DNA of 64,000 nt from Candidatus Latescibacterota bacterium (GTDB lineage Bacteria > Latescibacterota > UBA2968 > GCA-2709665), in the NCBI GenBank assembly GCA_965226795.1, contig CBDDDZ010000004.1, forward strand, positions 1-64,000, written 5' to 3'. Both the position numbers and the translations under genes were made by a program. Shown here piece after piece: positions 1-30,563 of this stretch. The notes below the pieces were generated by a model. That model had not been told where the DNA came from. It searched no databases and saw nothing but the letters and a program-made list of their open reading frames with translations. Every line of letters begins with the position of its first letter. Position 1 is the first letter of the stretch.

Positions 1-1653
1 ATGGTCGAAAATTCCGGCCGGCAGAGAGGAGAGATCGTTGAGGGATAAATCAAGCGACGTTAGTTGCGTCAGCCGGTCAAACGCTCCGGGAGGCAGGGAA
101 GTCAGTCTGGTGACACCCAGATTCAGACTTGTCAGCGAGGTCAGACCGAGAACTTCATCAAGTCCAGAAGTGAGAGGGCTCAAGTAGAGATTGAGTCCTT
201 TCAGTGAGGTCAGATCGTCAAAGATACCATCTGGCAGGGTGGTGATATAAGCATAACTCAGATTGAGGCCCGTTAGTGCGGTTAGCCCTGAAAAATCGCC
301 GGTTTGCAGTTCCGTATACCTAACCCCCCCTCCGTGACTCGCACTGAGAGTATTAATCGCGGCCAGATGCGCCTCCGTCACCTCGCCACAAGTGCTTACC
401 GGAGCCGCCCTCACAATGGCGTCGCGCACCAGCGCGGTACGGTCGCAGACGGGCGTGGTACCTCCCGACACGCGATTTATCACTTGTAGCGGCAGGCGTG
501 ACGGCGATTTGAACAAGGCGTAGTCCGCATGAGTTGCGGGCGGACTCGGCAGGTTCCCAATATCAACGCTAACCGGAAGCGTCGTGCCGGGCGTGCGGGA
601 TACGCTGAGAACATCGCTTTCCGTGCGGCTGGCGGGAATCGTGATGCTGCTTGCCCCTCCGCCCCCGATGACGTTGAGCGGCAGGACGATGTCAAACGGC
701 GCGCTGGCGGTCGCCGTGGCCTTGAACTGGCCTTCGCCAGTCTTCGTCAGTGAAACGATAATGGACCGGGAGTCGAGCGATGTCCCGTGGAGTGCAGTTC
801 TTAGTACGGGTGTCCTATTCGCAGGAAAAATCCTCCTACCGGCATCTGCTGGGACCACCGAACCCCAAACGTCTCCATTTTTTTTCAGAAGGCCATTTCC
901 AATGGACCATCCCGCAAGAGCGCCTGCATCCTCACTGGCTGATGACGTGATTACCACCCTGGATTCGTCAGTGTATCCAACGACGAGGAAGTAGTCCGTT
1001 TTCGGTTCGAGTATTGCGGCAACAGGCGCCTGGAAAACCAGTCGCAGCCCATAGCTGCCGTCGTTCACCCATTTTGCATATGGCAACGTGTATAGAAGTG
1101 AACCTGGAATACCATTCGAGTTGGACCAAACGCTTATGGAGAGGGGAACCTCTATCCGCTGACCTGGAAAATAGCGGCCATAAATCGCGGCAGAGCTTAT
1201 GTCGTAGCCGTACCTGTTCGAGCCTGTTCTGAATTGCTGAGCTATGCCACCGTCAATCCAAATTCCATATGGGTGCGTATGGGTATCGTAGGTATCATTG
1301 ATAGCCTTGAGGAAATTTGTTAGGGTGTCCCCTGCGGTGTTACCTATGATGGCCCCTATGGTGGCACCTCCGAGGGCACCGCCGGGGCCCAAAAGGGTGC
1401 CACCTAGTATGAAACCTCCAGCGGTACCGACGAAAATTCCAACTGCCTCCCACTCAATGTTGGTGAGATCACCTGGTAGGTCGAAACCTTTTTGGCCATG
1501 ACCATCATACCATGTGTATGGTTGGCCGATGTTGGTCACTAACGTGACGTCTTGGGCGTGCGCGGTGTCGCCCGCGCTGAGGGCCGTGACCCCTAGAAGG
1601 ACAACGAAAGCACAGGGGACTTGCACGGCTATCGACCGGGCGAGACGCGACAT
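1..1653 (-). CDS. Secreted LRR protein, 3' end outside the window: signal peptide, choice-of-anchor-R-like domain with a glycine-zipper insert, beta domain, Cys-capped LRRs
   Basis: Absent from the ORF track because there is no stop in the window. My translation from ATG 1653 is open to position 1: MSRLARSIAVQVPCAFVVLLGVTALSAGDTAHAQ...LVTNIGQ...AQQFRTGSNRYGY...TPVCDRTALVRDAIV...CGEVTEAHLAAI...LPDGIFDDLTSL...LPPGAFDRLTQLTSLDLSLNDLSSLPAGIFDH. Confidence 0.9.
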   Translation of the reverse strand, partial: MSRLARSIAVQVPCAFVVLLGVTALSAGDTAHAQDVTLVTNIGQPYTWYDGHGQKGFDLPGDLTNIEWEAVGIFVGTAGGFILGGTLLGPGGALGGATIGAIIGNTAGDTLTNFLKAINDTYDTHTHPYGIWIDGGIAQQFRTGSNRYGYDISSAAIYGRYFPGQRIEVPLSISVWSNSNGIPGSLLYTLPYAKWVNDGSYGLRLVFQAPVAAILEPKTDYFLVVGYTDESRVVITSSASEDAGALAGWSIGNGLLKKNGDVWGSVVPADAGRRIFPANRTPVLRTALHGTSLDSRSIIVSLTKTGEGQFKATATASAPFDIVLPLNVIGGGGASSITIPASRTESDVLSVSRTPGTTLPVSVDIGNLPSPPATHADYALFKSPSRLPLQVINRVSGGTTPVCDRTALVRDAIVRAAPVSTCGEVTEAHLAAINTLSASHGGGVRYTELQTGDFSGLTALTGLNLSYAYITTLPDGIFDDLTSLKGLNLYLSPLTSGLDEVLGLTSLTSLNLGVTRLTSLPPGAFDRLTQLTSLDLSLNDLSSLPAGIFDH

Positions 1654-1709
1654 CCTCTTTATTCGTTTCAATGTTCGGTCCTTCTTTTTTTAGGTGAAGG
1701 AAGGCCACA

Positions 1710-1789
1710 CGACGGGCGTTTTCATAAGGGCCAATGGGCAGCCCGATCAATTCCTAGGTCAGTGCCACCAACTCGATCAACGCTTGCAC
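1710..1789 (-). pseudogene. Decayed linker that once joined the dockerin to a C-terminal sorting domain
   Basis: In frame after the stop of 1790..4129: *VQALIELVALT*ELIGLPIGPYENA. This resembles the remnant at 4237-4556 (AKLVAM-QEIIGLPAGPQLQ*NAPNPFN). Confidence 0.7.
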
Positions 1790-4129
1790 CTACGTGCCGA
1801 AGGCGTCAACAAACTCGAAGAAGTCGGCGAAGTCCACCGTGCCGCTGCCGTCGAGGTCAAATTTGGCGTCCGTGGTGCCGAAGGCATCCACGAAGTCGAA
1901 GAAATCGGCGAAATTCACGATGCCATCGCCGTTGAAATCGGCCGTTTTTTGTCCCCGCGGCACCGACGTGTTCTCACCGGCAACGGTTACCGCCACCGCA
2001 GGGGAGCAGTTGTTGCCGGTGTTGGATTCTCCCAACACCGCCTTGACACAGGCTCCGTAGTGGTACGTGCCGGAGCTTGACGGGGCGGTCAGGTCCAGGG
2101 AATGGTCGCTGCTGTCCGAAGCGGCAAGGCCGCTCACCGTATGGGATTCCATTTCCGTATCGCCGGTTGAGATTGTCGCGTCCGACGAGCGGTAGTAGTG
2201 CAGCGTCGTCGAGGCCGAAGAACCCGTGCCCTGGTTGCGGACGGTGGCGCTCAGCGTGAAGGTGGCCCCGGCATCCGGACTGCTGTCGCTGACCGATGGA
2301 GACTGGACGACCAAATCCGGTGTTGCATCGTTGGACGGAATGTTGAAGGCGTAAATCGAAACGCTAGCCCACCCGTCCGTTTCGTCTGCGACCCACATCG
2401 TCGTGCCGTCGGACCAGAGGCCTGTAGGGGAATGCATTCGGGCGGCTTTTAGGGTGTTAAAGTCCTTGGCGGCGTCCCGGGCCTTGGTCGTCATGTTGTA
2501 GGCGTACAGCTTCTCGTCGATCCAGTCCGCCACCCACATCGTGGCACCGTCCGACCAGAGGCCGTAGGGTCTGTTGTTTCTAGCACGCCGCAATGTATTG
2601 AAATCTTTGGCGGGGACCCGCGAATTCGTCGTCATGTCGTACGCGTAAATCTTGTCGTAATAGTCGTCTGCAACCCACATGGTCGTCCCGTCGGACCAAA
2701 TGCCACGTGGACGATAGTTTTCAGCGGCATCCAGGGTATTGAAGTCCCTGGTTGGAACCCGCGTCTTCGTCGTCATGTCGTACGCGTAAATCTTGTTGCT
2801 CCCGCCGTCACTGTCTTCTGCAACCCACATGGTCGTCCCGTCGGACCAGAGGCCGGTCGGGGAGTCGTTCCCGGCGGCATCCAGGGTATTGAAGTCCCTG
2901 GTTGGAACCCGCGTCTTCGTCGTCATATCGTACGCGTAAATCTTGCCGTCACCGCTTGTGGCATTGTGCAACCCGTCCATAACCCACATGGTCGCGCCGT
3001 CGGACCAGAGGCCGGTGGGGGAGGTGTTTCCGGCGGCACCCAGGGTGTTGAAGTCGGCGATAGGGTTCCAAGCGTAGGCGGTGGTCACACGCCGGTACGC
3101 AGTGACGGTGACGGTGTAGGTTTCGGTCTGGCCGTCATAGGCGGTGACCGTAATGGTGATGTCGTTCTTCCCCTCGGAGAGGGGGGCGACCGTGTGGCTC
3201 GATCCGCTGGGGACAGCGGTCCCATTGACGTCGATGGTGGCGTTGGCGTCGTTGGCCGTGGGCATGACGGTAACCTGGTCAGCTTCGTAGACGGCCCTTT
3301 GATAGGTATAGGCGGTCACGTCGCTGGCGAAGCCGATGATGTCCACCGGGCTGACGGTCAGCCCGCTCAGGGTGGCGTCACCGGCGCCGGCGGCGACGGG
3401 TATTTCTGCGGTGAAGGCGGGGCCCTCGTAGGCCGCTACGGCCTCCGCTCCCACCGTGAAGGTCAGCGTACCGTCGGTGGTCATGCCACCGACGAGGTCG
3501 CCGAGGAACGTAAGCACCACCGTCATCTCGGTGTCGCTCACACGTCTTATATCGGAATGACTGTCGAAGGTGACGCCGGTGATGCCCGACACGGTCACGG
3601 CATCTCTGATGTCGGAGATATTCTGCACGTAGGAACGGCCCGTCATCGTCAGGGTCACCACGCTGCCATTCAGCGCCGCCTCCGTCAACGGATACACCGT
3701 GGACGCGACCAATGATTCCGCCGTCGCGGTGACCGGTATTTCTGCGGTGAGCGCGGGACCCTCATAGTTCTCTATGGCCCCCGCCCCCACCGTGAAGGTC
3801 AGGGTGCCATTGGTGGCCAGGTCGCCACTGAACTGAAGTTCAACGGTCACCGCCGTTTCGCCCACCCGAACTATGTCATTGCGGTCAACAGTTACGCCGG
3901 CGATGCCGGACACGGTCACGGCATCCCTGACGTCGGAGGTATTCCGCGCGTATTTGCCGCCTGTCAGCAGCAGCGCAACCCTGCCGCCGCTCAGCGTGGC
4001 CTCCGTCAGCGGAGACTCCGTGGACGCGACCACCCTCGGCGCTTGACCGTAGCTGATACCATGCGTTCCAAAGACCAGCAGGACCAACATCAGCACCAGG
4101 CATTTTCTACTTCCAATGGGGACTCTCAT
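1790..4129 (-). CDS. Secreted modular protein: 2x PLTEAT repeat, cadherin-like beta-sandwich, 'DFNTL..SPTGLWSDGTTMWV' propeller repeats, CARDB-like domain, C-terminal dockerin-like module
   Basis: ORF 1790..4201. ATG 4129 is preferred because a purine-rich RBS precedes it and a signal peptide follows. C-terminus: DFNGDGIVNFADFFDFVDAFGTTDAKFDLDGSGTVDFADFFEFVDAFGT. Confidence 0.88.
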   Translation of the reverse strand: MRVPIGSRKCLVLMLVLLVFGTHGISYGQAPRVVASTESPLTEATLSGGRVALLLTGGKYARNTSDVRDAVTVSGIAGVTVDRNDIVRVGETAVTVELQFSGDLATNGTLTFTVGAGAIENYEGPALTAEIPVTATAESLVASTVYPLTEAALNGSVVTLTMTGRSYVQNISDIRDAVTVSGITGVTFDSHSDIRRVSDTEMTVVLTFLGDLVGGMTTDGTLTFTVGAEAVAAYEGPAFTAEIPVAAGAGDATLSGLTVSPVDIIGFASDVTAYTYQRAVYEADQVTVMPTANDANATIDVNGTAVPSGSSHTVAPLSEGKNDITITVTAYDGQTETYTVTVTAYRRVTTAYAWNPIADFNTLGAAGNTSPTGLWSDGATMWVMDGLHNATSGDGKIYAYDMTTKTRVPTRDFNTLDAAGNDSPTGLWSDGTTMWVAEDSDGGSNKIYAYDMTTKTRVPTRDFNTLDAAENYRPRGIWSDGTTMWVADDYYDKIYAYDMTTNSRVPAKDFNTLRRARNNRPYGLWSDGATMWVADWIDEKLYAYNMTTKARDAAKDFNTLKAARMHSPTGLWSDGTTMWVADETDGWASVSIYAFNIPSNDATPDLVVQSPSVSDSSPDAGATFTLSATVRNQGTGSSASTTLHYYRSSDATISTGDTEMESHTVSGLAASDSSDHSLDLTAPSSSGTYHYGACVKAVLGESNTGNNCSPAVAVTVAGENTSVPRGQKTADFNGDGIVNFADFFDFVDAFGTTDAKFDLDGSGTVDFADFFEFVDAFGT

Positions 4130-4236
4130 TGTTCGCAACCCTCTTTCTGTTGAAGTTTGCAAGTGTGCGTACTCCGGATCTGTCAAAACCTGCATGGGCA
4201 ATCACTCCCCAGCATCGACACGATGGAATCAATCGA

Positions 4237-4556
4237 TTACCTCAGCAGGGTGACGTTGCACATCCGCATGCTCTCGTCCGTCAGCAGCCGGTAGAGGTAG
4301 ATGCCGCTGACGAGAGGCCGCCCGGCGTCGGCGCGGCCGTCCCCAGTGGATCCGTTGGCGGCCGGCCTTCTAGGCCCCTGGAGCGGGATCACCACCCGCT
4401 GCCCGGTCAGCGCGAACACCTCCAGTCGCGCCGGACCCGGTTCCCGCAGTAACCAGCAAATGACGGTCTCGCTGTTGAACGGATTGGGGGCGTTTCACTG
4501 CAACTGCGGGCCTGCGGGCAACCCGATGATTTCCTGGGCATCGCCACCAGTTTGGC
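4237..4556 (-). pseudogene. Decayed T9SS/FlgD-Ig-type C-terminal sorting domain cut off from the upstream adhesin
   Basis: After TAG: AKLVAM, a 1-nt shift, then QEIIGLPAGPQLQ*NAPNPFNSETVICW...LEVFALTGQRV...DGRADAGRPLVSGIYLYRLLTDESMRMCNVTLLR*. Confidence 0.85.
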
Positions 4557-7500
4557 CTATCCCGACGTGCCGAAGGCGTCCACAAATTCGAAGAAGTCGG
4601 CGAAGTCCACCGTACCGCTGCCGTCGAGGTCAAATTTGGCGTCGGTGGTGCCGAAGGCATCCACGAAGTCGAAGAAGTCGGCGAAATTCACGATGCCGTC
4701 ATCGTTGAAGTCGGCTGTAACCTGTCCTTGCGACCCGGTACAGTCTGGCAAATCAAGCTTGTCCAGGTCGTTGATAGCGACGTCCCGCAAGACCACCGGG
4801 ACACACCCTGTCAGGGTATTTCCGGCGAGATACAGTAACGTCAACCTTGTCAGATTGCTGAACGCCGAGGGAATGGACCCCGTCAGCTTGTTGTCGTCCA
4901 GGCGAACTTCCTGCAGCAGACTCAGGTTGCCCAGTTCCGCGGGGATCGGCCCGGTCAACTGGTTGCCGAACAGGAGTAGTTGCCACAGTTCGGCCAGGCG
5001 ACCGAGTTCCGCCGGTATGGTCCCGGTCAGCCGGTTGCCCTCCAGGTTCAATATCTTCAATCGCGGCAAATCACCCAGCCACGTGGGGATCGTTCCGGTC
5101 AACTGGTTGTGCTGGAGGGCAAACTGCCCCAGGTTGGTCAGGTTGCGCAGTTCCGCGGGAATTCGCCCGGTCAACCGGTTATTCATTAGGCCCAGGTGCG
5201 TCAGGCTGGTCATCGTACCCAGTTCCGCCGGTATGGTCCCGGTCAACTGGTTGAACGCGAGGTATAGCGCTTTCAGGCCGGTCAGGCGGCTCAACTCAGC
5301 CGGTATCGTTCCGTTCAAGCTCTCGTTCCAAAGTCTCAACTTCGTTACGCGCTGCGGCGTCCCGCTGAGAGTAACGCCGTCCCAAGTGGATATAAGTGTG
5401 TTTTCCGACCAGTTCAGCGTCGCCGTTCCGACCAGGGTATCCCGGGCATCGAGCAGCGCGTTGCAGTCGGATACCAGCCACGGGTTGGCAGCCGGGTTTT
5501 GCACCGCGCTCCCGGTGGCGCACCGGCCCAGCGGCGCCGGCGGTGTGGGGACGGTGGGGGTCGCGAGGGCCAGGCCGAAGGGATTGTCCAGGCCGTCGGC
5601 TCTGGTCACAAGGTCTTCGACGCTGGATCCGTCCAGGTTCGCACGCTGGATCTTGTCGGTATCGAGGTCGGTCCAGTACATTTTGCCCGCAGACAGATCC
5701 AGGTCCAATTCGATCGGTTTATCCAAACCGCGGGTGATAACGTCTTCGATATTGGATCCGTCCAGGTCCGCACGCTGGATCTCGCCGGTTTCGCGATCCG
5801 TCCAGTACATCTTGCCGCTGGCGATGTCCAGCGCCAATCCGCTGGGACTCCCGAAACCGCTTGTAATCAGGTCCTCGACGTTGGAGCCGTCAAGGTCCGC
5901 ACGCTGAATCTTGTCCGCGGACGAGTCCGTCCAATACATCTTGCCGGCGGACACGTCCAGCACCAGGCCCGCAGGACTGTTCAGACCCCCGGCGACCACC
6001 AGGTTCTCCACATTGGAACCGTCCAGATTCGCACGCTGAATCCTGTCCGTTCCCCAGTCCGTCCAGTACATCTTGCCGCCGGACACGTCCAGCGCCATCC
6101 AGACCGGCGTGTTCAAACCGCTGGTGACCAGGTCTTCCACGTTGGAGCCGTCCAGGTCCGAGCGCTGGATCTTCTTCGTACGCATGTCCGGCCAGTACAT
6201 TTTCCCGGCAGACACGTCCACCGCCAGCCCGACGGGCGTGCCTAAACCCCTCGTGACCAGATCCTCGACGTTGGAGCCGTCCAGGTCCGCACGCTGGATC
6301 TTGTGCGTACCCAAATCCGTCCAATACAACTCCGGCCTGGCCTGAGGTTCGCTCACGTCAGTCAGGTTGATGGTCACGTCAATCGTGGTACTGCCGCTCT
6401 GGCCGTCGGAAACCCGCACCGTAACCTCGTAGCGGTTCTTAACCTCAAAGTCGTACGTGATGCCCGCCCTGGTCTGAAGCTGGCCGCTGGTTGGGACGAG
6501 GACGAAACTCGCCGCGTCCGTACCCTCAAGGCTGTAGGTCAAGGTTCCGCCGTCGCTGTCCGTTGCGCTCACCGGGTTGCCGATGTTCTGCCCCGCGCCC
6601 GCGTTCTCGGCAAAGCTGCGCGTGGCGCTTGCGCCCTCGTTGAACGTCGGTACTTGACCGGCAACCGCGAGAGCCAGCGCGGTTGGGTCGGACAGTCCAT
6701 CGGCGCTGGTGACGAGGTCTTCGATATTCGAGCCGTCGAGGTTGGCGCGCTGAATCTTGCTGAAATCGCGGTTGGTCCAATACATTTTGCCGCCGGCCAA
6801 ATCCAGCACCAACTCGTTGGGTTTACCCAAACCTCGGGTGACGAGGTCTTCGATATTCGAGCCGTCGAGGTTGGCGCGCTGAATCCTGTTTCTGTTCAGT
6901 TCCGTCCAGTACATCTTGCCGTTCGCTACGTCCAGCGCCAACCCGCTGGGACCGCCCAAGCCGCTTGTGATGAGGTCTTCGACGTTTGAGCCGTCCAGGT
7001 TGGCACGCTGAATCTTATGCCAGAACGAATCAGTCCAGTACATCTTGCCGTTCGCTACGTCCAATGCCAGCCCGCCCGGACTGTTCAAACCTCGGGTGAC
7101 GAGATCTTCAACGTTTGAACCGTCGAGGTTGGCACGCTGGATCCTGTCCGTGCCCCAGTCCGTCCAGTATATCTTGCCGCCAGGCACGTCCAGCGCCATC
7201 CAGACCGGCGTGTGCAAACCGCTGGTGATGAGATTTTCAACATTTGAACCGTCAAGGTTGGCACGCCGAATCTTGTCTTTTTTCCATTCCGTCCAGTACA
7301 TCTTGCCGCCGGTCACGTCCAGCGTAATCCCGACCGGCCCGTCCAGTCCGTCAGCGCTGTCCACGAGGTCTTCGACGTTCGAGCCGTCGAGGTTGGCGCG
7401 CTGAATCTTGTCCCTACCCGCGTCCGTCCAATACAACACCGGGTTCGCCTGCGGTTCGCCCACGTCGGTCAGGTTGATCCTCACGCCAATGGTAACGCTG

Positions 7501-10500
7501 CCGCCCTGTCCGTCGGACACCCGCACCGTAGCCTGATAGCGGTTCTTCACCTCGAAGTCGTAGGTGACGCCCGTCCTGGTCTGAAGCTGGCCGCTGCTTG
7601 AGACGATGGTGAAACTCGACGCATCGGTGCCTTCCAGGCTGTAGGTGAGCGTACCACCGTCGCTATCCGCCGCGCTCACCGGGTTGCCGATGTTCTGCCC
7701 CGCGCCCGTGTTCTCGGCAAAGCTGCGCGTGGCGCTTGCGCCCTCGGTGAACGTGGGTACTTGATTGGTTCCGCCGCCGGACTCAGCGGTCACGGGCAAT
7801 GTTGCTAGGAGCGGATCTCCATTGTAGTTCGCGATCGCCCCGGCGCCCACCGTGAACGTCAGCGTACCGTCCGCGTCGATGTCGCCGTTGAACGTGAGCT
7901 CAACCGTTACCTTCGTGTCGCTCACGCGCGTAATCCCAAACGTCCCAACACTCACGCCCGCGATTCCCGATACCGACACACCACGCCGAACGTCGAAGAT
8001 GGAACTCGCGTATGCACCGCCAGTCAACGTTAGTGTTACCACGCCCCCGTTAAGTGTCGCTTCCGTCAACGGCGACGTAGTCGATGCCGTCACCGATTCC
8101 ATTCCCGCTCTCACCGGCAACTGCGCCGTCAACGCGGCGCCGCTGTAGCTCGCGATCGCCCCGGCGCCCACCGTGAACGTCAACGTGCCGTCCGCGTCGA
8201 TGTCACCGTTGTACGTGAGCTCCACCGTCACTTTTGTATCGCTCGCGCGCGTAATCCCGAACGTGCCCACACTCACGCCCGCTATGCCCGATACGGTCAC
8301 ACCTCGCCGAACGTCGAAGATGGAACTCGCGTAGGCGCCGCCCGAAAGTGTGAGTGTCACCACGCCGCCGTTGAGCGTGGCTTCTGTCAGTGGAGATACT
8401 GTCGTTGCCGTCACTGATTCCATCCCCGCGCTCACCGGCAACTGCGCCGTCAGCGCGGCGCCGCTGTAGTTCGAGATGGCCCCCGCGCCCACGGTGAACG
8501 TCAACGTGCCGTCCGCGTCGATGTCACCGTTGTACGTGAGCGTTACCGTCACCTTTGTGTCGCTTGCGCGCTGAATCCCGAACGACCCCACGCTTACGCC
8601 GGTGATTCCTGAGACTGTCACGGCTCTCCGAACGTCGAAGATGGAACTCGCGTACGAACGACCCGTAAGCGTCAGTGTCACCACGCTCCCGTTCAACGTC
8701 GCCTCTGTCAACGACTGCGGCGTTGTCGCAACTACCGTTTCCTCCAGCGCAGTTACAGACACCTGGTCGGTGAGCGCGGGACCGCTGTAGTTCGCAATCG
8801 CACCGGCGCCCACCGTGAACGTCAGCGTACCGTCCGCGTCGATGTCTCCGTTGAACGTGAGCTCAACCGTCACCTTCGTGTCACTCACGCGCGTAATCCC
8901 GAACGTGCCCACACTCACGCCGGCTATGCCCGATACCGTCACTCCACGCCGGACGTCGAAGATGGAACTTGCATACCTACCGCCAGTCAACGTTAATGTT
9001 ACCACGCCCCCGTTAAGTGTCGCCTCCGTCAACGGTGACACCGTCGTCGCCGTCATGGATTCCATACTCGCAGTGACCGGCAGTTGATCCGTGAGCGCGG
9101 CGCCGCTGTAGTTCGCGAGCGCACCGGCGCCCACCGTGAACGTCAGCGTCGGCCGTCCGCGTCGATGTCTCCGTTGAACGTGAGCTCAACCGTTACCTTC
9201 GTGTCGCCTCCTCACGCGCGTAATCCCAAACGTCCCCACGCTCACGCCGGTGATTCCTGAGACAGTCACACCTCGCCGGACGTCGAAGATGGAACTCGCG
9301 TATGCACCGCCAGTCAACGTTAGTGTTACCACGCCCCCGTTAAGTGTCGCTTCCGTCAACGGAGAAACCGTCGATGCCGTCACCGATTCCATCCCTGCGC
9401 TAACGGATAACTCCGCCGTCAGTCTGGCGCCGCTGTAGGACGCGATTGCGTCGGCGCCTACAGTGAACGTCAGCGTCCCGTCCGCGTCGATGTCTCCGTT
9501 GAACGTGAGCTCAACCGTTACCTTCGTGTCACTCACACGCCGCACGCCAAACGTCCCAACACTCACGCCCGCGATTCCCGATACCGACACACCGTCACGG
9601 ACGTCGAAAATGGAACTCGCGTAGACGCCGCCCGCCAACGTCAACGTCACCACACTGCCATTCAGCGTCGCCTCCGTCAACGGAGACGTTGTCGATGCCG
9701 TCACCGATTCCATCCCTGCGCTAACGGATAACTCCGCCGTCAGTCTGGCGCCGCTGTAGGACGCGATTGCGTCGGCGCCTACAGTGAACGTCAGCGTCCC
9801 GTCCGCGTCGATGTCTCCGTTGAACGTGAGCTCAACCGTTACCTTCGTGTCACTCACACGCCGCACGCCAAACGTCCCAACACTCACGCCCGCGATTCCC
9901 GATACCGACACACCGTCACGGACGTCGAAAATGGAACTCGCGTAGACGCCGCCCGCCAACGTCAACGTCACCACACTGCCATTCAGCGTCGCCTCCGTCA
10001 ACGGAGACGTTGTCGATGCCGTCACCGATTCCATCCCTGCGCTAACGGATAACTCCGCCGTCAGTCTGGCGCCGCTGTAGGACGCGATTGCGTCGGCGCC
10101 TACAGTGAACGTCAGCGTCCCGTCCGCGTCGATGTCTCCGTTGAAGTCGAGCTCAACCGTGACCTTCGTGTCACTCACGCGCTCGATACCGAACGTCCCC
10201 ACGCTCACTCCCGCGATGCCCGATACCGACACACCGTCACGGACGTCGAAAATGGAACTCGCGTAGACGCCGCCCGCCAACGTCAACGTCACCACACTGC
10301 CATTCAGCGTCGCCTCCGTCAACGGAGACGTTGTCGATGCCGTCACCGACTCGATCCCTGCGCTAACGGATAACTCCGCGGTCAGTGCGGCGCCGTTGTA
10401 GGACGCGATGGCCCCCGCGCCCACCGTGAACGTCAGCGTTCCGTCTTCGTCGAAGTCACCGTTGAAGTCGAGTTCAACCGTTACCTTCGTGTCATTCACA

Positions 10501-10775
10501 CGCTGCACGCCGAACGTCCCCACGCTCACGCCCGCTATGCCCGATACCGACACACCACGCCGAACGTCGAAGATGGAACTCGCGTAGACGCCGCTCGAAA
10601 GCGTCAGCGTTACCACGCTCCCATCCAGCGTTGCTTCTGTTAACGGCGACGTTGTCGAAGCCGTCACCGACGGGCTGTTTCCCTGCCCGTAGCCCACTCC
10701 CGGCATGGCGAATGCTGTCAAGACGACTACCAGTGACATCAAGGCGATTCGCCGATTCACAATTGGCCGTTTCAT
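4557..10775 (-). CDS. Giant secreted adhesin, about 2070 aa: 9x 107-aa PLTEAT repeat, cadherin, 6-blade YWTD, cadherin, 6-blade YWTD, Cys-capped plant-type LRR, dockerin-like. Split by two compensating insertions.
   Basis: ORFs 9186..10775 and 4557..9134 continue the same repeat unit. Compared with sister repeats there are 4 extra nt near 9207 and 2 extra nt near 9151 (net +6). 12 YWTD-type motifs; LRR motif LxxNxLTGxIPAELGxL. Confidence 0.88.
7785..10677 (-). repeat. Tandem 321-bp (107-aa) coding repeat, 9 copies
   Basis: The motif gtcgatgccgtcaccgattccatccctgcg recurs at 9370, 9691 and 10012. The central units are near identical at DNA level. Confidence 0.92.
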
Positions 10776-10788
10776 AAGTCAGCATCCC

Positions 10789-13700
10789 CTATTCAAAGGT
10801 GCCCCTGGTGACGCGTCCACCTTCGATGCTGCATCCGCCGGCGGCGATACAGGTATATCGGGTTCCATCCTGTAGTTCGATCAGGCCGCCATTCTGGAAG
10901 CTGAGAACCGTGCGGCCGCCGCTGCTCGTAAGACTCGCGCCGGTTAGACGTCTCGGAACAAAGAAACCGGTTGGGAAATTCGGGAGGGCGTCGCCAACGC
11001 CATAGGTTCCGCCACTGCTGCCACCGGCGGCGCCTACGGCCAGACCCGATGGATCCACAAGCCCGTCGGCGCTGGTGAGAAGGTCTTCGACGTTGGAACC
11101 ATCGAGGTCCGCGCGCTGGACCTTGTCCGCGTCCACGTCCGCCCAGTACATCTTGCCGCCGGACACGTCGAGATCCAACCCGTTGGGACTTGTCAGGCCG
11201 GTGGCGACCAGGTCTTCCACGTTGGAACCGTCGAGATCCGCGCGTTGGATCCTGGATGTTCCGCGGTCCGTCCAGTACATCTTGCCGCCGGACACGTCCA
11301 GAGCCAGGCCGGTGGGGTTGCTCAACCCGCTGGAGACCAGGTCTTCCACGTTGGATGCGTCCAGATCCGCCCGCTGGATCTTGTCCGACCCGGGGTTCGT
11401 CCAATACATCTTGCCGGCGGACACGTCCAAAGCGATTTCACCTGGAAATGGGAAGCCGGCGAGGGCAATGAGATCTTCAACATTGGAACCATCCAGATCT
11501 GCGCGTTGAATCTTGCCGTTCTGCCGATTCGTCCAGTACATCTTGCCGGCGGACACGTCAAGGGCCAGACCGTACGGTATGCTAAGGCCGCTGGTGACCA
11601 GATCCTCCACGTTGGAGCCGTCCAGATCGGCGCGTTGGATCTTGGACGTGCCCGCGTCCGTCCAGTACATCTTACCGCCCGCCATATCCAGGGCCAGCCC
11701 ATCGGGGCCGTTCAGCCCGGCGCTGCTGACCAGGTCTTCCACGTTGGATCCATCGAGATCCGCCCGTTGAATCTTGTCCGTGCCCCAGTCCGTCCAGTAC
11801 AGCTTCGACGCTACAGTAGTTGGCGGAGGCGGTGGCTGTGATGCGACTGTGACGCTCACGGCAGCAGAGCAGTTGTTTCCGGTATCGGATTCTCCGGATA
11901 CGGCGTCGACACAGGCTCCGTAATAGTAGGTTCCGGGATTCGATGGGGCCGCCAAATTAACCGATAGAGCCTGATCAATCGATCCACCATTCCCGCCGGA
12001 AGCCGGCAGGCCGCTCACGGCATCGGTGCCGACCTCCATGTCACTCGTGGAAATCGTCGCGTCAGACGAGCGGTAGTACCGCAACGTCGTCGCCGCGGAC
12101 GAGCCATTGCCGCTGTTCCGGACCGTCGCACTCAGCGTAAACGACGCCCCGGCGGCAGGACTGTTGTTGTCAACCGAAGGGGATACGACAACCAGATCAG
12201 GGGCAGGGGCCGCGCCAACGGTTACCGTCACCGCAGCGGAGCAGTTGTTTCCGGTATCGGATTCTCCGGATACGGCGTCCACACAGGCGCCGTAATAGTA
12301 GGTTCTGGTACCCGATGGCGCCGTCAGGTCGATCGATAAAGCCAGATCAATCGATCCTCCATTCCCTCTGGACGCCGGAAGGCCGTTCACCGCGTCCGTT
12401 CCGACTTCAGTGTCACTCGTAGATATCCTCGCGTTCGAAGAGCGGTAATAACGCAACGTCGTCACCGCGGACATTTCATCGCCCTGGTTGCGAACGGACG
12501 CACCCAGCGTAAAGGAGGCGCCGGCAGCCGGGCTGCTGTTGCTGACAAAAGGCGATACGACAACCAGGTCGGCAGCGCCTCCACCACCGCCACCGCCGGT
12601 ACCGGATCCGCCTCCACCGCTGCCAGACGCCGTCGCCACGGCCACTCCCGACGGATCGACGAGTCCGTCAGCGCCGGTAACCAGGTCTTCAACGCCTGAG
12701 CCGTCCAGGTTGGCACGCTGTACCTTGTTCGTTCCCGCGTCCGCCCAGTACATCTTCCCGCCGGACACGTCAAGGGCCAACCCATTGGGACTGTTCAAGC
12801 CTGTGGTGACCAGGTCTTCGATGCCTGATCCGTTGAGGTTGGCGCGCTGTATCTTATCGGTGCGCCGGTCGGTCCAGTACATCTTGCCGCCGGATACGTC
12901 CAGCGCAAAGCCGGTGGGACTGCTAACGCCGCTGGTCACGAGGTCTTCGACCCCCGAACCGTCCAGGCTGGCGCGTTGAATCTTGCTGTTGCCCAGATTC
13001 GTCCAGTACATCTTGCCGCCCGACACGTCCAGAGCCAATCCGCCGGGAAATGTCAAACCGCTCGTTATAATGTCCTCGACATTGGCGCCATTGAGATCGG
13101 CACGCTGTATCTTGTTCGTCTGCCTGTTCGTCCAGTACATCTTGCCGCCCGACACGTCCAGCGCCAGTCCGTACGGAATTCCCAGGCCGGTGACCAGGTC
13201 TTCGACGTTTGAGCCATTGAGATCGGCTCGCTGGATCTTGTTCGCGCCCGCGTCCGTCCAGTACATCTTGCCACCCGCCATATCCAGCGCCAATCCGTCA
13301 GGACCGTCCAGCCCGCCGCCCGAGACCAGGTCTTCGACCCCCGAACCGTCCAGGTTGGCGCGTTGAATCTTGTCCGTGCCCCAGTCCGTCCAATAAAGCT
13401 TCGACGCTCCGGTGGCAGGCGGAGTCTGCGTCGTTACGGTTACGGTGACGGAAGCCGAGCAATTGTTCCCGGTATCGGATTCACCTGCCACCGCGTCGAC
13501 ACAGGCTCCGTAGTAGTGGGTGCCGGAATCCGTCGGAGCGATCAAACTATACGACATGGCGCTTCCGGCCGAAGCCGCAAGCCCTCGCACCGTATCCGTA
13601 CCATCCTGAGTGTCACTCGTGGTAATCGTCGCGTCCGTCGAGCGGTAGTAGCGTAACGTTGTGGCGGCGGACGCGGCACTGCCCAGGTTGCGTACCTGGA

Positions 13701-14481
13701 CGCTCAGTGCAAAGGGACCTCCCGCAGCCACACGTGCGCTGCTGACCAAAAGCGATTGGACTACGAGATCCGGGTTGCCGCCACCACCGCCGCCCGTTGA
13801 AGGCGGCGGACCCCCAAAACTCTGTGCAAAGATCAAAAAGTCCGTAAAACCGATCGAACCATCGGAATTCAGATCGACCCCGGCATCGTAGGTCCCATCG
13901 CCCTGCCGCGACCCGAACACGCTCGCGAGAATCAGGAAATCCGAGAAACCTACGTAGTCATCGCCATCTAGATCAGGGGAGGGCGCGGAATTGAAACTGA
14001 TCGCAGTGGTTGTCGCGAGTTCGTCGCTCGAAGTCGTACTCTCGGCGAGTGTAACCGACTCGATGCCTATGGAAAACTGCCGGCCCGTTACGTCGGAAAC
14101 GGTCGTGAACTCCGCGCGCGCCAGAAAACCCGATGACGACAACGTGGCGGGGTTACGCGTCGCGAAGAGGGTCCCGGTCGAGCCTTCGGGAAGCGTGAGG
14201 GGAAACGCGCTGTTTTCGGCCTTGACAAAGGACAGGAGGGAAGCGTCAAAGTCAAATTCGATAGAAATACCGATCAGAGACGTCCTCACACCCGTTGCGA
14301 AAACCTCGATGGCGACGGTTGTGCCCCGACCGGAAACTGTCCCCGACGTAACCCCACCATCCGTCCGGTTGCCGGCGCCGCCACCGGGAATGAGGTCAAG
14401 CGACAAAACGGCATTTGCATTGGCGCCGGCATACGCATGACCCGCAAAGACCAGCAACCCGAGGACGGCGATCAACAACAA
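10789..14481 (-). CDS. Secreted adaptor-like protein: cohesin-like, dockerin-like, CARDB, 6-blade YWTD, 2x CARDB, 6-blade YWTD, small Cys-containing C-terminal domain
   Basis: Signal peptide; VAIEVFATG..LIGISIEFDFDASLLSFVK (cohesin-like); DLDGDDYVGFSDFLIL...DLNSDGSIGFTDFLIFAQSFG (dockerin-like); three DLVV..YYGACVD units. The start is uncertain: the ATG after AAGGAG (near 14498) is out of frame. Confidence 0.85.
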   Translation of the reverse strand: MLLIAVLGLLVFAGHAYAGANANAVLSLDLIPGGGAGNRTDGGVTSGTVSGRGTTVAIEVFATGVRTSLIGISIEFDFDASLLSFVKAENSAFPLTLPEGSTGTLFATRNPATLSSSGFLARAEFTTVSDVTGRQFSIGIESVTLAESTTSSDELATTTAISFNSAPSPDLDGDDYVGFSDFLILASVFGSRQGDGTYDAGVDLNSDGSIGFTDFLIFAQSFGGPPPSTGGGGGGNPDLVVQSLLVSSARVAAGGPFALSVQVRNLGSAASAATTLRYYRSTDATITTSDTQDGTDTVRGLAASAGSAMSYSLIAPTDSGTHYYGACVDAVAGESDTGNNCSASVTVTVTTQTPPATGASKLYWTDWGTDKIQRANLDGSGVEDLVSGGGLDGPDGLALDMAGGKMYWTDAGANKIQRADLNGSNVEDLVTGLGIPYGLALDVSGGKMYWTNRQTNKIQRADLNGANVEDIITSGLTFPGGLALDVSGGKMYWTNLGNSKIQRASLDGSGVEDLVTSGVSSPTGFALDVSGGKMYWTDRRTDKIQRANLNGSGIEDLVTTGLNSPNGLALDVSGGKMYWADAGTNKVQRANLDGSGVEDLVTGADGLVDPSGVAVATASGSGGGGSGTGGGGGGGAADLVVVSPFVSNSSPAAGASFTLGASVRNQGDEMSAVTTLRYYRSSNARISTSDTEVGTDAVNGLPASRGNGGSIDLALSIDLTAPSGTRTYYYGACVDAVSGESDTGNNCSAAVTVTVGAAPAPDLVVVSPSVDNNSPAAGASFTLSATVRNSGNGSSAATTLRYYRSSDATISTSDMEVGTDAVSGLPASGGNGGSIDQALSVNLAAPSNPGTYYYGACVDAVSGESDTGNNCSAAVSVTVASQPPPPPTTVASKLYWTDWGTDKIQRADLDGSNVEDLVSSAGLNGPDGLALDMAGGKMYWTDAGTSKIQRADLDGSNVEDLVTSGLSIPYGLALDVSAGKMYWTNRQNGKIQRADLDGSNVEDLIALAGFPFPGEIALDVSAGKMYWTNPGSDKIQRADLDASNVEDLVSSGLSNPTGLALDVSGGKMYWTDRGTSRIQRADLDGSNVEDLVATGLTSPNGLDLDVSGGKMYWADVDADKVQRADLDGSNVEDLLTSADGLVDPSGLAVGAAGGSSGGTYGVGDALPNFPTGFFVPRRLTGASLTSSGGRTVLSFQNGGLIELQDGTRYTCIAAGGCSIEGGRVTRGTFE

Positions 14482-14690
14482 GCTCTTTTTGAAGACATTT
14501 GGGTAACACTCCTTTGCGCCAGGGAAGATTTCCGGCCTGACATTGCCCCGGTGGGGGTTTGGACACTTGAGTTCACAACGCCGTGAGCGACCCGCCTGCG
14601 CCTGCTTTGTCGCCGGAATGAAATTCGATGCCGACGCCTGTACAGCTCCGGGGCATCCCCAAGTTCACAGACGCCATATTGGCTTGAGAC

Positions 14691-15500
14691 CTACTTCAAT
14701 AACAGCATCCGTTTGGACGCCGAGAAACTCCCCGCCTGTATCCGGTACAGGAAGATGCCACTGGCAACACGCCGGCCCAATGCGTCCGTCCCATCCCAGG
14801 TCGACGTAAACGATCCCGCGTCCCTCCTCTCGTTCACCAGTACACGTACCTCCTGGCCCAGCAGATTGAATATCGAAAGCCGGACCAACCCCGCTTCGGA
14901 TAACTGGTAGCCGATCACGGTGGAGGGGTTGAACGGATTCGGCATATTCTGGTCCAGATTGAACTGATCCGGCAATGGCTTCAGATTGCCGATTTCGAAG
15001 TGAGTCAACAGGTCAACCGCGCCATCCACGCCGACCAGTACGCTTTCCGAAACCTGAAAATCGTCAGACGCCGGTGTGCCGCTCGTCTTGAACACAAGCT
15101 CAACGAGTTTCCCCTCGCCGCTGGCCCCCTGGCGGTCGACCTTCACAGCGCCGATATCCACCTGGCCCGGCGTCCGATTCGAAGACAGGAATAGCGTCTC
15201 CTGCCCGGAACCGGATTTCAGCAGGTTCCCGTCCAATTCCGTGGCGTTAACGAACTCGTATTTCACGGGATCGAATTGCAGCGAAAATCCGTATCCCTTC
15301 AGATCATTGGCCTGCGCCAACGTGACATGCAACTTCAGAATTCCGTCGTCTGCGTCCGGGTCATTCACGCGCTCCAGCTTGAGTGTTGCAAAGGCGTTCC
15401 GGCCGCCCGTGATGTTCAATCCCCGGGTCATATCTCCGGCCGATGCCGGTCCTGCCAACACAAACGCCGCACAAACGGATGAGATAAGACGAGTCCACAT
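14691..15500 (-). CDS. Cohesin-like domain plus intact T9SS/FlgD-Ig C-terminal sorting domain (putative anchoring scaffoldin)
   Basis: AAGGAGG RBS before ATG 15500; signal peptide; LKGYGFSLQFDPVKYEFV...GEGKLVELVFK; then LDQNMPNPFNPSTVIGY...WDGTDALGRRVASGIFLYRI...KRMLLLK. Confidence 0.85.
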   Translation of the reverse strand: MWTRLISSVCAAFVLAGPASAGDMTRGLNITGGRNAFATLKLERVNDPDADDGILKLHVTLAQANDLKGYGFSLQFDPVKYEFVNATELDGNLLKSGSGQETLFLSSNRTPGQVDIGAVKVDRQGASGEGKLVELVFKTSGTPASDDFQVSESVLVGVDGAVDLLTHFEIGNLKPLPDQFNLDQNMPNPFNPSTVIGYQLSEAGLVRLSIFNLLGQEVRVLVNERRDAGSFTSTWDGTDALGRRVASGIFLYRIQAGSFSASKRMLLLK

Positions 15501-16775: not shown

Positions 16776-17474
16776 CTAAACTTGTCCCAGTTTCCAATTT
16801 CTGCGATACGTGGTCGGATTATTTCCATACTTCTCTTTAAATGCCTTGCTGAACGTCGACAAAGATCCAAAACCACACGAATAAGCGATCTCTGAAATGG
16901 AAGCCGTGGTGCTCTTCAGTACTTCTTCAGCCTTGGCCAGGCGAACATTCCGCAGACTCCTGCTGAATGATTCACCCAGATGTTTCTTGAACAATGCATA
17001 TCCGTAGGACTTTGAGAACCTGAAATAACGCACGACATCTTCGAATCTCAGATTAGGATTGCTGTGGTTTTCTTCGAGAAACGACTCCAGGCGGCTCTTC
17101 CACATATCCTGTAAAGGCATATATTTCCTGATATTCGCCAGGAATACATCTCTATCAATCGGTTTATCGAATACGCTGATGGCAATAGGCCTGTTCACTT
17201 TCTCTCCGAATTCCAGGGTTCCCAGGCTTGTCACCAGCAGAATAGCTGTCTGAATACTCCCTGACTTGACGCCCTCCAAAAGTGTTACCACATCCTGATC
17301 CTCGACGCATGCCTCGACCACTGCGAGGTCGATTTTCTCTCTTCTCAAAATTTCGAGGCCCCCTGGCCCATCTTTCGCAGTGACAATCTCATAAGGTTCG
17401 TCTTCCAGGAATCCTGCGAGTTCCGACATTGCAACCGGGTCGCGATCTACGATCAATATTTTTCGCTTTTCCAT
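16776..17474 (-). CDS. Atypical receiver domain + AraC HTH regulator (copy 1)
   Basis: KILIVDRD...DLAVVEACV...DKP; AraC motif ISEIAYSCGFGSLSTFSKAFKEKYGNNPTTYR. Confidence 0.9.
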   Translation of the reverse strand: MEKRKILIVDRDPVAMSELAGFLEDEPYEIVTAKDGPGGLEILRREKIDLAVVEACVEDQDVVTLLEGVKSGSIQTAILLVTSLGTLEFGEKVNRPIAISVFDKPIDRDVFLANIRKYMPLQDMWKSRLESFLEENHSNPNLRFEDVVRYFRFSKSYGYALFKKHLGESFSRSLRNVRLAKAEEVLKSTTASISEIAYSCGFGSLSTFSKAFKEKYGNNPTTYRRNWKLGQV

Positions 17475-17649
17475 TGCGTCAGGTCCCCCCAACAATCAAA
17501 GTTGCCCGTATTCGAGCCACACAGATCTACCACGCACATGCCCTGGGGAATCTCCGGACTATGGCGCTCCGGAACGGGTCATTGCGGTGCACACTAAGAA
17601 TATCCGTGACGGAAATACGATGTCAAGACCGCAAGTTTGTTCTGGAGTG

Positions 17650-18348: not shown

Positions 18349-18432
18349 TTCGTCAGGTCCCCTGAACAATCAGAGTTGCCCGCATTCACGGCGCACAGAT
18401 CTATCACGCACACGCCGCAGGAAATCCCCGGA

Positions 18433-19219: not shown

Positions 19220-22200
19220 TCATCGGTACACGATCAACCGCTCTCTTTTTCCCGCACGCGTTTCTGCCCGTCGTCCGCAGTAACTGTATAGAGGTAAACA
19301 CCATTGGCCAGCAGGTGCCCGTCGGCATCCCGTCCGTCCCATCGAACCTGATTGTACCCCGCCCGTCCCGGCACGCCTTCCAGAATCCGTATCAGTCGCC
19401 CCGATACGGTATAGATGCGAATAGCTACTTCCGCCGGACGGGACAGAATGTACGTAAAGTCCGTCGCCTCGGGGGTCGGATTGGGAACGTTCAGCACCCG
19501 CTCGATCGCGAGGTCCGACGAAACCTGAAATGCCACGGACTTTTCAGCGGGGCCGTTGCCCAGCTGGTCGGTCCCTGAAACCGAAAGCTTGTAGCGTCCG
19601 TCTTCCAGCCGCGGAGAATAGGTGAATCGCAACGAAGTCGGTTCCTCTTTCCGGTCGGCCACCCGATCCGAGGCCAGTCCATCGGAGATTTCATCTTCGG
19701 ATCCTGTCAAGACGAGTCTAACCGATCCCGCGTCGATGCCGCTTGAATCCCTAAAAGCCACCGAGAACCTCGGCGCCGACGGAAGATAGTCATCCGGCCG
19801 GACCTCGCCGGCGGCGTCCAGAGCGTCCAGATCCAGTTCGGGCCCCTCCCGATCATCGCTCGGATGGACCTCAACGGCCTCGTCGGCGGTCGTCTCTCTC
19901 AAGTAAAAACTCCGACTGCCCGAGAGATCCTCCAACCGGGCCGATACGACATTCGTCCCGGAAAATCGCGCGGTATTCCAGACGAGGGACACGGTAGCCG
20001 TTTCACCTACAGGAGTTTCTTCCGGAACTGACGCGCGTCCGATCAGCCGGCCGTCTTCGGGCGAGCCGCTGTAAAATGCCACCACCCCGCCGGGAACCAG
20101 ATCTAAAGGCCCCCTGTTCCGGACCTGGACGGTCAGCCGAACCGGTTCCAGTTCATCAACTTCGAGGGGGATCGCCCGCAGCCCGGATAGGACAAGATCG
20201 GACTGCGGCCGGTATCGCACCTGCCAACCCGTGAGTCCGGCGGACGGTCCCAGCCCGTCTCCGGCCAACCGAACCCGGATCCGGATACGATCTGCCTTTA
20301 TGTCGCTGAGGTTGATCTCACCGTCGGGCGCCAGGCCGGTCCATTCCGCGAGCGGCGTAATCCCGCCGGACGGCGCCTCACCGAGAATATCCACTTCCAC
20401 CCGCCCACCCGACGCCTCCCGAACGTCAAGAGTCAGCCCGTGCCAGGCGCCGGCCGGACCGATCGGCTCCGACATCAACGTCCCATACGGCGGAAGCGTT
20501 TTCCCCGCATACCTGTAAATCGTGCGGCCGTTGAGTTGACCCAGCCAGACTTTGTTGTTGATCCAATCGTACTGCCCGGACAAAATATCGGTCTCGGATT
20601 GATCGCTGTCATATTCTTCAATAAATCTCCCGGTCAGGGCGTCCACGACCCGGACCCGATGGGTTAACCCTGTACCGAATTCAATCAGATAGAGATACCG
20701 CCCATCCGCAATGACCCCGTCCGTAAAGAGATAGGCAAAACCGGTCTCCGTCGGCGCCACGGTAAACTCCCGTACCACGCGCCAATTGTCCGACGGATCG
20801 AACACGCGCACCGACCAGCCCGCTCGCTGCACCCCATCCACCGCCGCTGCCAGATTGTAAAGGTAACTACCGTCCGACGTTATCAACGAGTGCCCTCTGG
20901 ATACAAACCCTGTTCGGAAATCCATCAGCCCTTCGGGCACCCCCACGCGATCCACAACCCCCGTAGAGGGGGCAATCCGCACCAGTTCGCGTCCTCGGCC
21001 ATCGTCGGCATAGATAAACCCGTCGCCATGATAGGTTGCCGAAACCCCAAGAATCGGCGTATCTGAAAGCGCGCCGTGATTCCGTCCCGCCCGCGTGCCC
21101 CCAAATCCCGTCCCGATCCGCTCGAAGACATCGGTCCCCGGATAGACCGCCGTTGGAGAATAGAACCGGCTTACATAAAGGTAGGTGCCATCCGTACACA
21201 ACACCCCCGTGCCTCGGACGCCTTCGGCCTCGAACGCCGCTTCCCGCGTGTCCGTGTTAAGACGCAACGGAGGCGGATCGACCACGCGCGAAAGCGCGCC
21301 GTCAGCCAGGCGCACATCGGTGGCGGTGCCCCACCGGAGGGCATTGGCGGCACTCTGGTTCCACACGACCTCCCGCGCGGGTGCGGTGGGCCGCGCCGTG
21401 AATTCCATGGTGGTTGACCACGCACCGAATTCGCCGCCGTCGCGCAACCGGGACCTCCAGAAGTACGTTCCGGGCGCCACCTCCGGCAGTTTCCACAACA
21501 CGAACCCGCCGCGTGCCCCGACAGGACCGGAACGGATCACGCCGGGACCGTTGAACCCAGGTGAATCACTCACCTCGAACTCGCCCTCCGTCTCCACCGC
21601 TCCGGTGCCCTGGCGCACTCCCAGCCGCACCCCGGTAACGGGCACCACCTGGCTCTGCCGCGGCATCGTGGGCACGGCCGACAGACTCCCGACCACGTCC
21701 AACTCGACCTCCACGTGGTTGTTGGCTTCGTCCAACTCCGGAATCTCATCGTCAGGATCCACCGTGAGCGCCAGCAGGTGCCTGCCTGCCCGTCCCGCCA
21801 GCCGCCACATCACCGCTGTGCTGTCCGACTGGCCGAAGGCGGGGAAAACACCTGTAAACAGTGTATCCACTTCACCCCGGTCCAGATTCCGATCCACCAG
21901 GACAACCTCCGGCCCCGCGCGTGGCGTAATCCCGATGTTCTCTATCCGGATCGCGATCCGAACCGAGTCTTCGACGGTCAGCTGACCGGTGCGCTCGACT
22001 TTCAAGCTTTCCGAATCCAGGGAGAAATCCGGGTTGGGCAATATGGCCAACTCCTGGGCGGGGTCTCCAATCAACTGCATGGCGAGCGTCAGCGTTTTCA
22101 ACTGCGGAAACCGCGTATCCAGCGCCGCCTTGGCCACGGCCAGACCGGCGCCGAACTGCCGGACGCCGTCTCTGAAGAACGCGGCGAACAAACGGTCGCT

Positions 22201-24981: not shown

Positions 24982-24994
24982 ATGGATACGACCC

Positions 24995-26590: not shown

Positions 26591-26601
26591 GGCGACCCCA
26601 C

Positions 26602-26628
26602 AAAAAAAAAACCGGCGTACGGCCAGCC
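26602..26628 (-). terminator. Possible intrinsic terminator: GC hairpin plus T10
   Basis: Minus strand gctggc-cgtac-gccggt followed by a T run. Confidence 0.45.
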
Positions 26629-26769
26629 CCGTCCTTTGGAGAAAGAAGGTTCGGACGGTCCAACGCCAGTTGAATAACGTTCATTTATCGGAACGCGGAT
26701 CGTGGGCCGCCAGTGCGCTCCGACATTCACCACGACCCGCGCGCATCAGCGCCAGGTAAGACAGCTTTC

Positions 26770-30485: not shown

Positions 30486-30563
30486 GGCAGGAAAGCTCCT
30501 TCAATATAAACACGAGATTCCGGGGAATCAATGGAAAACGGCGCTTTTTCGGGGAACCCGAAA

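Follow-up and report, generated by a model that had tools for sequence, protein, structure and literature searches.

A cohesin adaptor with a type IX secretion tail is proposed to carry dockerin proteins to the surface of a Latescibacterota bacterium

We analyzed the first 64,000 nucleotides of contig CBDDDZ010000004.1 (here called the window) from assembly GCA_965226795.1 of a Candidatus Latescibacterota bacterium. This stretch opens contig C4 of a genome (G000) of 5.4 Mb that is 96% complete. Genes A, B, D, C and E lie there in that order, all on the (-) strand. Gene A joins a cohesin to a C-terminal domain (CTD) of a type IX secretion system (T9SS), and genes B, C and D carry dockerins and no intact CTD. 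Sequence comparison gives a somewhat better than even chance that the cohesin of A binds the dockerins of B, C and D and of about 85 other tail-less proteins, carries them across the outer membrane and holds them on the surface. A wider reading falls a little short of an even chance. It holds that an order of Latescibacterota moved the T9SS tail onto a 27-kDa universal adaptor, that 50-110 proteins per genome are exported non-covalently by a T9SS without recognisable GldL and GldM, and that acquired dockerin genes shed their CTD. The system is real and conserved. It is not a cellulosome; it is a non-cellulosomal cohesin-dockerin display, and its distinctive feature is the proposed shared-adaptor export. 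The original prediction had described a co-oriented anchor, adaptor and two cargo genes at 1790..15500, and all four parts were found there on the (-) strand. The system is larger than a complex of four genes: genome-wide there are three such adaptors, A included, for about 90 dockerin open reading frames (ORFs).

Gene A (14691..15500) encodes 269 amino acids (aa), with a Sec signal, a cohesin (14991-15401) and a type A CTD (14694-14990), in agreement with the predicted layout. The signal was called by inspection. The CTD scored 28.5 bits against the TIGR04183 cut-off of 23, and a Sec signal with a C-terminal TIGR04183 match defines T9SS type A cargo. A profile of the A family matched the NagJ cohesin over its full length (positions 12-141) with an E value of 5e-8, and its PDB matches were cohesin-containing entries in 25/25 cases. 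The Atlas linked the A cohesin to Cohesin clusters with a score of 0.92. Two paralogs of gene A bring the cohesin-CTD genes of the genome to three. The paralog on contig C5 passed the cut-off of Pfam Cohesin (PF00963), which was present in 17/120 homologues among the matches listed. In the paralog at G000:C3:297603-298730 (L070), a partial duplicate of its own cohesin precedes the full copy.

The neighborhood of A is conserved. We compared 16 loci, picked by likeness to gene A and related to one another, which are labelled Candidatus Latescibacterota (8), Gemmatimonadota (6) and uncultured bacterium (2). A cohesin-dockerin gene directly follows A in 16/16 loci. A D-like gene is in third place in 10/16, and a PorU-like gene lies upstream of A in 10/16.

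Comparison with relatives shows A to be the released end of a tail of dockerin, cohesin and CTD, which they still carry in fused form. A dockerin, a cohesin of the A type and a CTD stood in one chain in 119/120 of the proteins listed, mostly from one or two protein families; at 80% identity, the 120 sequences count as 32 effective ones. The middle domain of these tails aligned with the A cohesin at an HHalign probability of 98.6%. Three B-type cohesins stand together with a dockerin, a cohesin of the A type and a CTD in each of three representatives. One genome of the window's own family (G017) has in one ORF, in this order, a B-type cohesin, a dockerin, a cohesin of the A type and a CTD; this ORF is 38% identical to gene A over 239 aa. 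The A-type cohesin was found throughout the order (52/52 genomes, 49 of them with E<1e-40) and weakly in 30/76 genomes of family f4, which belongs to another order. The stand-alone layout of A was seen directly in eight further loci. In a tree of cohesin-CTD tails, 11 stand-alone proteins of families f1 and f2 grouped with support of 80/97, and all 12 with 72/68. A single origin of stand-alone A is neither demonstrated nor rejected by this tree.

A profile built on 80 of the genome's dockerins had 2Y3N_B as its top PDB match (E 5e-12, aligned without gaps), ahead of calmodulins, and also matched 4WI0/4U3S. Each domain has a duplicated calcium loop (D1, D/N3, D/N5, D12) with a helix after each loop and, in the model of B, none before the first. 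By profile, and for B also by structure, the dockerins were nearer to solved dockerins than to EF-hand proteins. Position D1 was conserved in 79/79 and 80/80 sequences for the two loops, and D12 in 79/80 in both. Because the calcium ligands and Phe10, Phe13, Phe16 and Phe20-Gly21 are conserved in both loops, the sequences suggest that the dockerins share one specificity. One dockerin paralog passed Pfam Dockerin (PF00404) with 26.7 bits.

Among 60,968 ORFs, the dockerin profile matched 90, the two cohesin profiles 3 and 15, and the CTD profile 12; reversed ORFs gave 0 matches for each of the four profiles. Besides the 90 dockerin ORFs, some of which are frameshift fragments, the genome has 12 CTDs, 13 ORFs that combine cohesin and dockerin, and 3 genes that combine cohesin and CTD. 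None of the 90 dockerin ORFs also carried a CTD. The dockerin sits at the C-terminus in 61 of them, at the N-terminus in 19 and at an internal position in 10.

Cargo was classed by Pfam in 78/90 ORFs and by motif only in 8; 4 were left unclassed. The classes include WD40 (24), leucine-rich repeat (LRR; 11), YWTD (3) and several FN3/cadherin and FG-GAP proteins. There were also 2 heparinase II/III-like proteins, 1 GH5, and S8, M10 and M8 peptidases, and an HExxH-type motif occurred in 14/90. The statement that no catalytic domain is recognisable was right for the cluster in the window but not for the genome, where dockerin ORFs include hydrolase and protease domains. Judged by these domains, WD40, LRR, YWTD, FN3 and cadherin proteins likely make up most of the surface coat, beside a number of proteases and glycan lyases, and the coat likely makes contact with host matrix or cells. 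In three loci (L107:301-4683, L070:8809-9621 and L073:301-1455), dockerins are joined to a PPDK_N domain or to Cache domains, an odd cargo for a surface. A second, distinct pair lies at G000:C5:1497932-1505106 (L095), where a Pfam-type dockerin protein stands with a two-cohesin lamin-tail protein, both with CTDs.

Genes C and D end in the paired calcium-loop motif, as predicted. Gene D (4557..10775; about 2,070 aa) encodes a signal, nine 107-aa stalk repeats, two units of a cadherin and a YWTD propeller, an LRR and a dockerin (4560-4724). Gene C (1790..4129; 779 aa) encodes a signal, two stalk repeats, a cadherin-like domain, a repeat propeller, a CARDB domain and a dockerin (1793-1948). The loops of both dockerins are 27-spaced. 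Neither gene has an intact CTD of its own; the view of them as simply CTD-less was incomplete, in that decayed remnants follow their stops. Behind the D stop, a decayed linker and CTD with frameshifts and an internal stop lie at 4237..4554, with up to 80% DNA identity to intact dockerin-fused CTDs of f4 genomes. Behind the C stop, a weak blastx match (E 0.003) marks a decayed dockerin-to-CTD linker at 1730..1789. The remnants indicate that C and D lost their own CTD.

The stop positions were compared with contigs of X1 and X2 (both from a single sample that may be the source of the assembly), X3, X16 and X17. The X1 contigs were identical to the assembly over 2985-4674 and 1600-1901, which hold the remnants of D and C. 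X3 covered part of the D remnant and differed from it once; the D stop was spanned by an X16 contig. An assembly error as the origin of the remnants was rejected: the contigs agree, there are several lesions, and the relatives stop at the same place.

Intact fusions of a C/D-type dockerin to a CTD were present in 33/76 f4 genomes and in 0/21 f1, 0/31 f2 and 0/3 f3 genomes (0/52 in the window's order). A search with a like remnant from G016 returned 949 proteins, and in 120/120 of those listed an intact CTD comes right after a dockerin of the C/D type. A homologue of gene C, P0202, has an equal layout with an intact CTD and 49% identity over 637 aligned columns. On the sequence evidence, the simplest reading is that C and D were acquired by transfer from an f4-like donor. 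Behind C-terminal dockerins of nine genomes, remnants were found in 5/53 of the short type and 0/61 of the long type. G016 also encodes a 345-aa protein (L147:3341-4375) in which the usual order is reversed: a CTD-like domain lies close to the N-terminus, and the dockerin is C-terminal.

Dockerin and CTD counts run in opposite directions among relatives: where A stands alone, a lineage is rich in dockerins and poor in CTDs, and in the remaining lineages it is the other way round. Genomes of f1-f3 (n=12) had 51-112 dockerins and 7-31 CTDs; genomes of f4 and f9 (n=7) had 4-32 dockerins and 48-135 CTDs. These counts are for 19 chosen genomes that are kin and not independent, with at most 150 candidates scored per genome and both queries taken from this genome. 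The predicted anchor role of A and the idea of piggy-back export gain support from the reciprocal counts, together with the fused tails, the CTD loss and the searches for secretin described below; the limit to a complex of four genes was dropped.

We propose the following mechanism. The cargo and A would enter the periplasm by their predicted Sec-type signals. Seawater calcium in the periplasm would fold the dockerin, which would bind the A cohesin in trans. The CTD of A would be taken by PorV and SprA, and the bound cargo would go along; this is the least certain step. The PorU-like neighbour would then cut the CTD and tie A to a surface glycan, as the T9SS of Bacteroidota leads one to expect. 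Proteins with a B-type cohesin and a dockerin may add further sockets. The dockerin would have replaced the CTD as export tag. An arriving gene with dockerin and CTD, such as C or D, could lose its CTD at no cost because A would supply one in trans.

Gene B (10789..14498; about 1,236 aa) encodes a signal, a cohesin (13990-14427), a dockerin with 33-spaced loops (13807-13989), a CARDB domain, a YWTD propeller, two CARDB domains and a second YWTD propeller; it has no CTD. Pfam found 3 CARDB and 12 YWTD repeats. The first 207 residues were folded with a 42-row alignment to pLDDT 86, in place of a single-sequence model of pLDDT 34, and the model has a sandwich of nine strands and two helices. The sandwich is a nine-strand jelly-roll, as in cohesins. 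Cohesins ranked first in both Foldseek and VIA (Z 12.4, rmsd 2.8 A, 123 residues); the highest Z for pilin domains was 9.8. The NagJ/NagH structures of C. perfringens were the second-best fold match to the cohesin. The dockerin part overlaid the NagH dockerin 2OZN_B with Z 7.8 and rmsd 1.6 A over 52 residues. The predicted composition of B, a cohesin and a dockerin with CARDB and YWTD repeats, and both predicted folds were therefore recovered.

The cohesin of B could have another specificity, or it could only brace its own dockerin. In the second case A would still bind dockerins, B-type cohesins would not be adaptors but would play the part that the X module has in type II dockerins, and the system would have neither a chain nor a second tier. 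We consider this alternative, which bears on the adaptor step alone, unlikely. B-type domains lie directly before a dockerin in 129/194 cases (150 representatives listed), and the profiles of A-type and B-type cohesins barely match, B-type being a divergent family (HHalign probability 2.8%). On the other side, the B-type domain has the cohesin fold, it forms tandem arrays of up to 7 followed by a dockerin (one representative listed), and about 77/90 dockerin ORFs are without it.

The reading in which A also exports its cargo has to be weighed against one in which A is a surface anchor only. Dockerin proteins would then leave the cell by vesicles, by lysis or through a PorV paralog that reads the dockerin, and dock outside. 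SprA and nine PorV-family genes were above cut-off in the genome, and nine PorV genes for only 12 CTDs would suit such a paralog, as would the 61/90 dockerins at the C-terminus, where a signal would sit. Cellulosome assembly in clostridial systems is extracellular. Literature on a T9SS that moves bound, non-covalent cargo was not found; vesicle reviews turned up. The 29/90 dockerins in N-terminal or internal position speak against an anchor-only role. Secretin was not found in 5/5 genomes (91-99% complete), on which ground type II secretion was rejected as the cargo route. Genes that lose the CTD and keep the dockerin need an export substitute. We regard the anchor-only role as rather improbable.

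In a third alternative, which is quite improbable, the motif binds calcium or associates with itself and has no cohesin as partner, and CTD loss sends the proteins to the periplasm or into vesicles or is neutral decay that followed gene transfer. In its favor, calmodulin-type proteins do match the dockerin profile (E values mostly between 1e-6 and 1e-8), f4 genomes are rich in dockerin-CTD fusions and poor in cohesins, and B, C and D miss the Pfam Dockerin cut-off. Against it, the best sequence and structure matches are dockerins, the motif adjoins cohesins in fused tails and follows as many as 7 cohesins in tandem, the expansion of the dockerins is tracked by stand-alone cohesin-CTD genes, and the D dockerin is 87-98% identical in those orthologs that include it.

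Several observations weigh against export by a shared cohesin adaptor. Pfam searches, proposed as a check, did not place the domains: gene A scored 22 bits (E 2e-4) against the PF00963 cut-off of 24.1, gene B had no PF00963 match, the B dockerin scored 17.9 against the PF00404 cut-off of 22.9, and C and D had no PF00404 match. Profile comparison did match solved cohesins and dockerins, and the identity of the A cohesin comes from it and not from a 3D model. The Z of 7.8 for the B dockerin is within the range that the fold tool calls common. A crude signal test was passed by 57/90 dockerin ORFs and by 63/300 controls. Three single-socket adaptors for about 90 cargo genes imply competition or very high expression of A. 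Fused tails are still found in some genomes of the order, and the count pattern perhaps reflects one or two evolutionary events. The f4 genomes have 23-32 dockerins beside their own CTD and only 1-3 cohesin matches. Because f4, where no carrier is needed, keeps the dockerin next to the CTD with few cohesins, the dockerin may have another role.

The export machinery adds to these points. The proposed search for T9SS genes succeeded for SprA and PorV and failed for the motor. GldL was not found in 5/5 genomes (G000, G013, G029, G104 and G107) and GldM was not found in G000, and divergent forms of both may be missed. The match to PorP was under cut-off. The search for GldN gave no match anywhere and, having no positive control, is uninformative. 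The T9SS is incomplete by Bacteroidota standards, and in Flavobacterium GldL and GldM power substrate release, according to portions of PMC10994853. SprA and nine PorV-family genes with GldL and GldM not found leave a T9SS without a recognisable energy source.

The region upstream of gene A encodes two response regulators and a PorU-like peptidase and holds a gene cluster for glycan synthesis. The regulators are two tandem receiver + AraC proteins (16776-18369) directly upstream of A and are candidate regulators of the array. Their stretch is low in GC (47-53%), and the regulators are also present in G008, G009 and G013. The PorU-like C25 peptidase (19234..24981, (-) strand), conserved upstream of A, scored 303.6 bits against the NF033707 cut-off of 420. 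It has the C25 domain, a CTD and both the His and Cys motifs, and from its sequence it is a candidate CTD-cleaving sortase. The PorU-like gene and the glycan cluster after it span 19234-39199, and the cluster encodes a PMT-like protein, an epimerase, two GT4, a sulfotransferase, a flippase, a DegT aminotransferase, a GT2 and Wzi. Anionic lipopolysaccharide (A-LPS) offers an analogy for an anchor glycan, which this cluster may make. Elsewhere in the window (42708-46911), an aldehyde dehydrogenase, an EutN/CcmL shell protein, a class II aldolase and an acetate kinase form a bacterial microcompartment-type locus.

Downstream of C, gene E (1..1671) encodes a signal and an LRR and is truncated by the contig end. 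E is probably the next cargo gene of the array because in relatives the array goes on with dockerin-ended genes. A run of dockerin genes lies at the end of contig C5 (G000:C5:3092030-3112756; L113, L114). Since its genes match those after the array in G013, G008 and G009, the array probably continues across the contig gap onto C5.

Three errors of the assembly were corrected. The ORFs at 9186-10775 and 4557-9134 are a single gene D, which is split by a 4-nt insertion at 9207 and a 2-nt insertion at 9150/9151, and a 1-nt deletion at 14485 puts the ATG of gene B (14498) out of frame. The X1 and X2 contigs were free of all three errors. The X17 contigs lacked both insertions in D, and the X3 contigs lacked the 2-nt insertion and the deletion in B. 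Gene D is one ORF in most of the relatives among the 16 loci. The possibility that D and B are true pseudogenes was rejected because the indels are missing from the contigs. Contigs from RNA runs covered parts of A, B, C and D; transcription or its level cannot be read from them. The 107-aa stalk repeat (7750-10680 and 3400-4050) has no clear Pfam family. Its copies number 5 to 12 or more in D orthologs, and the Atlas gave a lead to ChiW_Ig_like (0.91, on 18% of members). The NCBIfam assignment of gene D to XopAE/XopAC was rejected as far below cut-off and due to LRR likeness only. The bacterium is likely sponge-dwelling because 24-28% of the region's words are found in two runs labelled sponge metagenome.

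If the proposal is true, a cohesin-dockerin pair is an export signal as well as an assembly joint, and the T9SS moves non-covalent complexes. The decayed CTDs would catch the switch of tags in progress. An adaptor of 269 aa and a tag of 55 aa could serve as a modular tool for surface display. The system would also give eukaryote-like repeat proteins of sponge symbionts a concrete route to the cell surface, a point left open for sponge Poribacteria in portions of PMC3909097. In that account, signal-bearing YWTD, WD40, LRR, FN3 and cadherin proteins occur in Poribacteria, and TIGR04183 is present in many of them. They differ in belonging to another phylum, and the covered text of PMC3909097 mentions cohesin and dockerin 0 times. 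The words cohesin, dockerin, scaffoldin and CTD are absent from the Latescibacteria genome paper PMC4454575. Literature on cohesin-dockerin systems of Latescibacteria, or on their T9SS in sponges, was not found in the literature searches.

The single-cohesin anchor follows the logic of cellulosome anchoring scaffoldins, which in SdbA-type anchors are attached by SLH or sortase. Cellulosomes differ in having a scaffoldin with carbohydrate-binding modules (CBMs) and a set of cellulases. No multi-cohesin scaffoldin with a CBM was found in this genome, where ORFs have at most 2 cohesins and no CBM match on them, and cellulase/hemicellulase cargo is minor (the GH5 and the two heparinase II/III-like proteins among the 78 dockerin ORFs scanned with Pfam). 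Type II-like dockerins (2Y3N, 4U3S/4WI0, 5K39) share the 33-residue loop spacing, a hydrophobic position 10 and the Phe-Gly helix ends. NagJ/NagH of C. perfringens (PDB 2JH2, 2OZN, 2W1N) are likewise a non-cellulosomal pair and give the closest full-length profile match to the A cohesin; they are Gram-positive glycoside hydrolases with no outer membrane and no export role.

The T9SS of Bacteroidota, with its type A CTD cargo, shares SprA, PorV, the CTD and a PorU-like peptidase. Known cargo there has its own CTD in each case, by the covered portions of PMC10994853, whereas here a non-covalent adaptor is proposed and the motor was not found. The planctosome of freshwater Planctomycetes is likewise a proposed hierarchy of anchor, adaptor (cohesin and dockerin) and cargo outside cellulolysis. 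It differs, in the parts of PMC6461901 considered, by a proposed lamin-tail domain anchor, peptidase cargo and a model without a T9SS CTD.

The closest precedent is Ca. Stygibacter (Cloacimonadota), for which portions of PMC8542988 already propose a CTD-anchored scaffoldin with dockerin enzymes. Both systems are Gram-negative, have a cohesin protein with a T9SS-type CTD as anchor and signal-bearing dockerin cargo, and were deduced from genomes only. Cargo export is not discussed in the text portions of PMC8542988 examined. The Ca. Stygibacter anchor described there is one 3,755-aa multi-cohesin scaffoldin with CBMs that serves four enzyme types. In contrast, the anchor here is minimal with a single cohesin, there are about 90 cargo genes, mostly for repeat proteins, and the sequences bear signs that the tail was split and CTDs were lost. 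A cohesin scaffold anchored by a CTD is thus a principle already put forward in those portions of PMC8542988.

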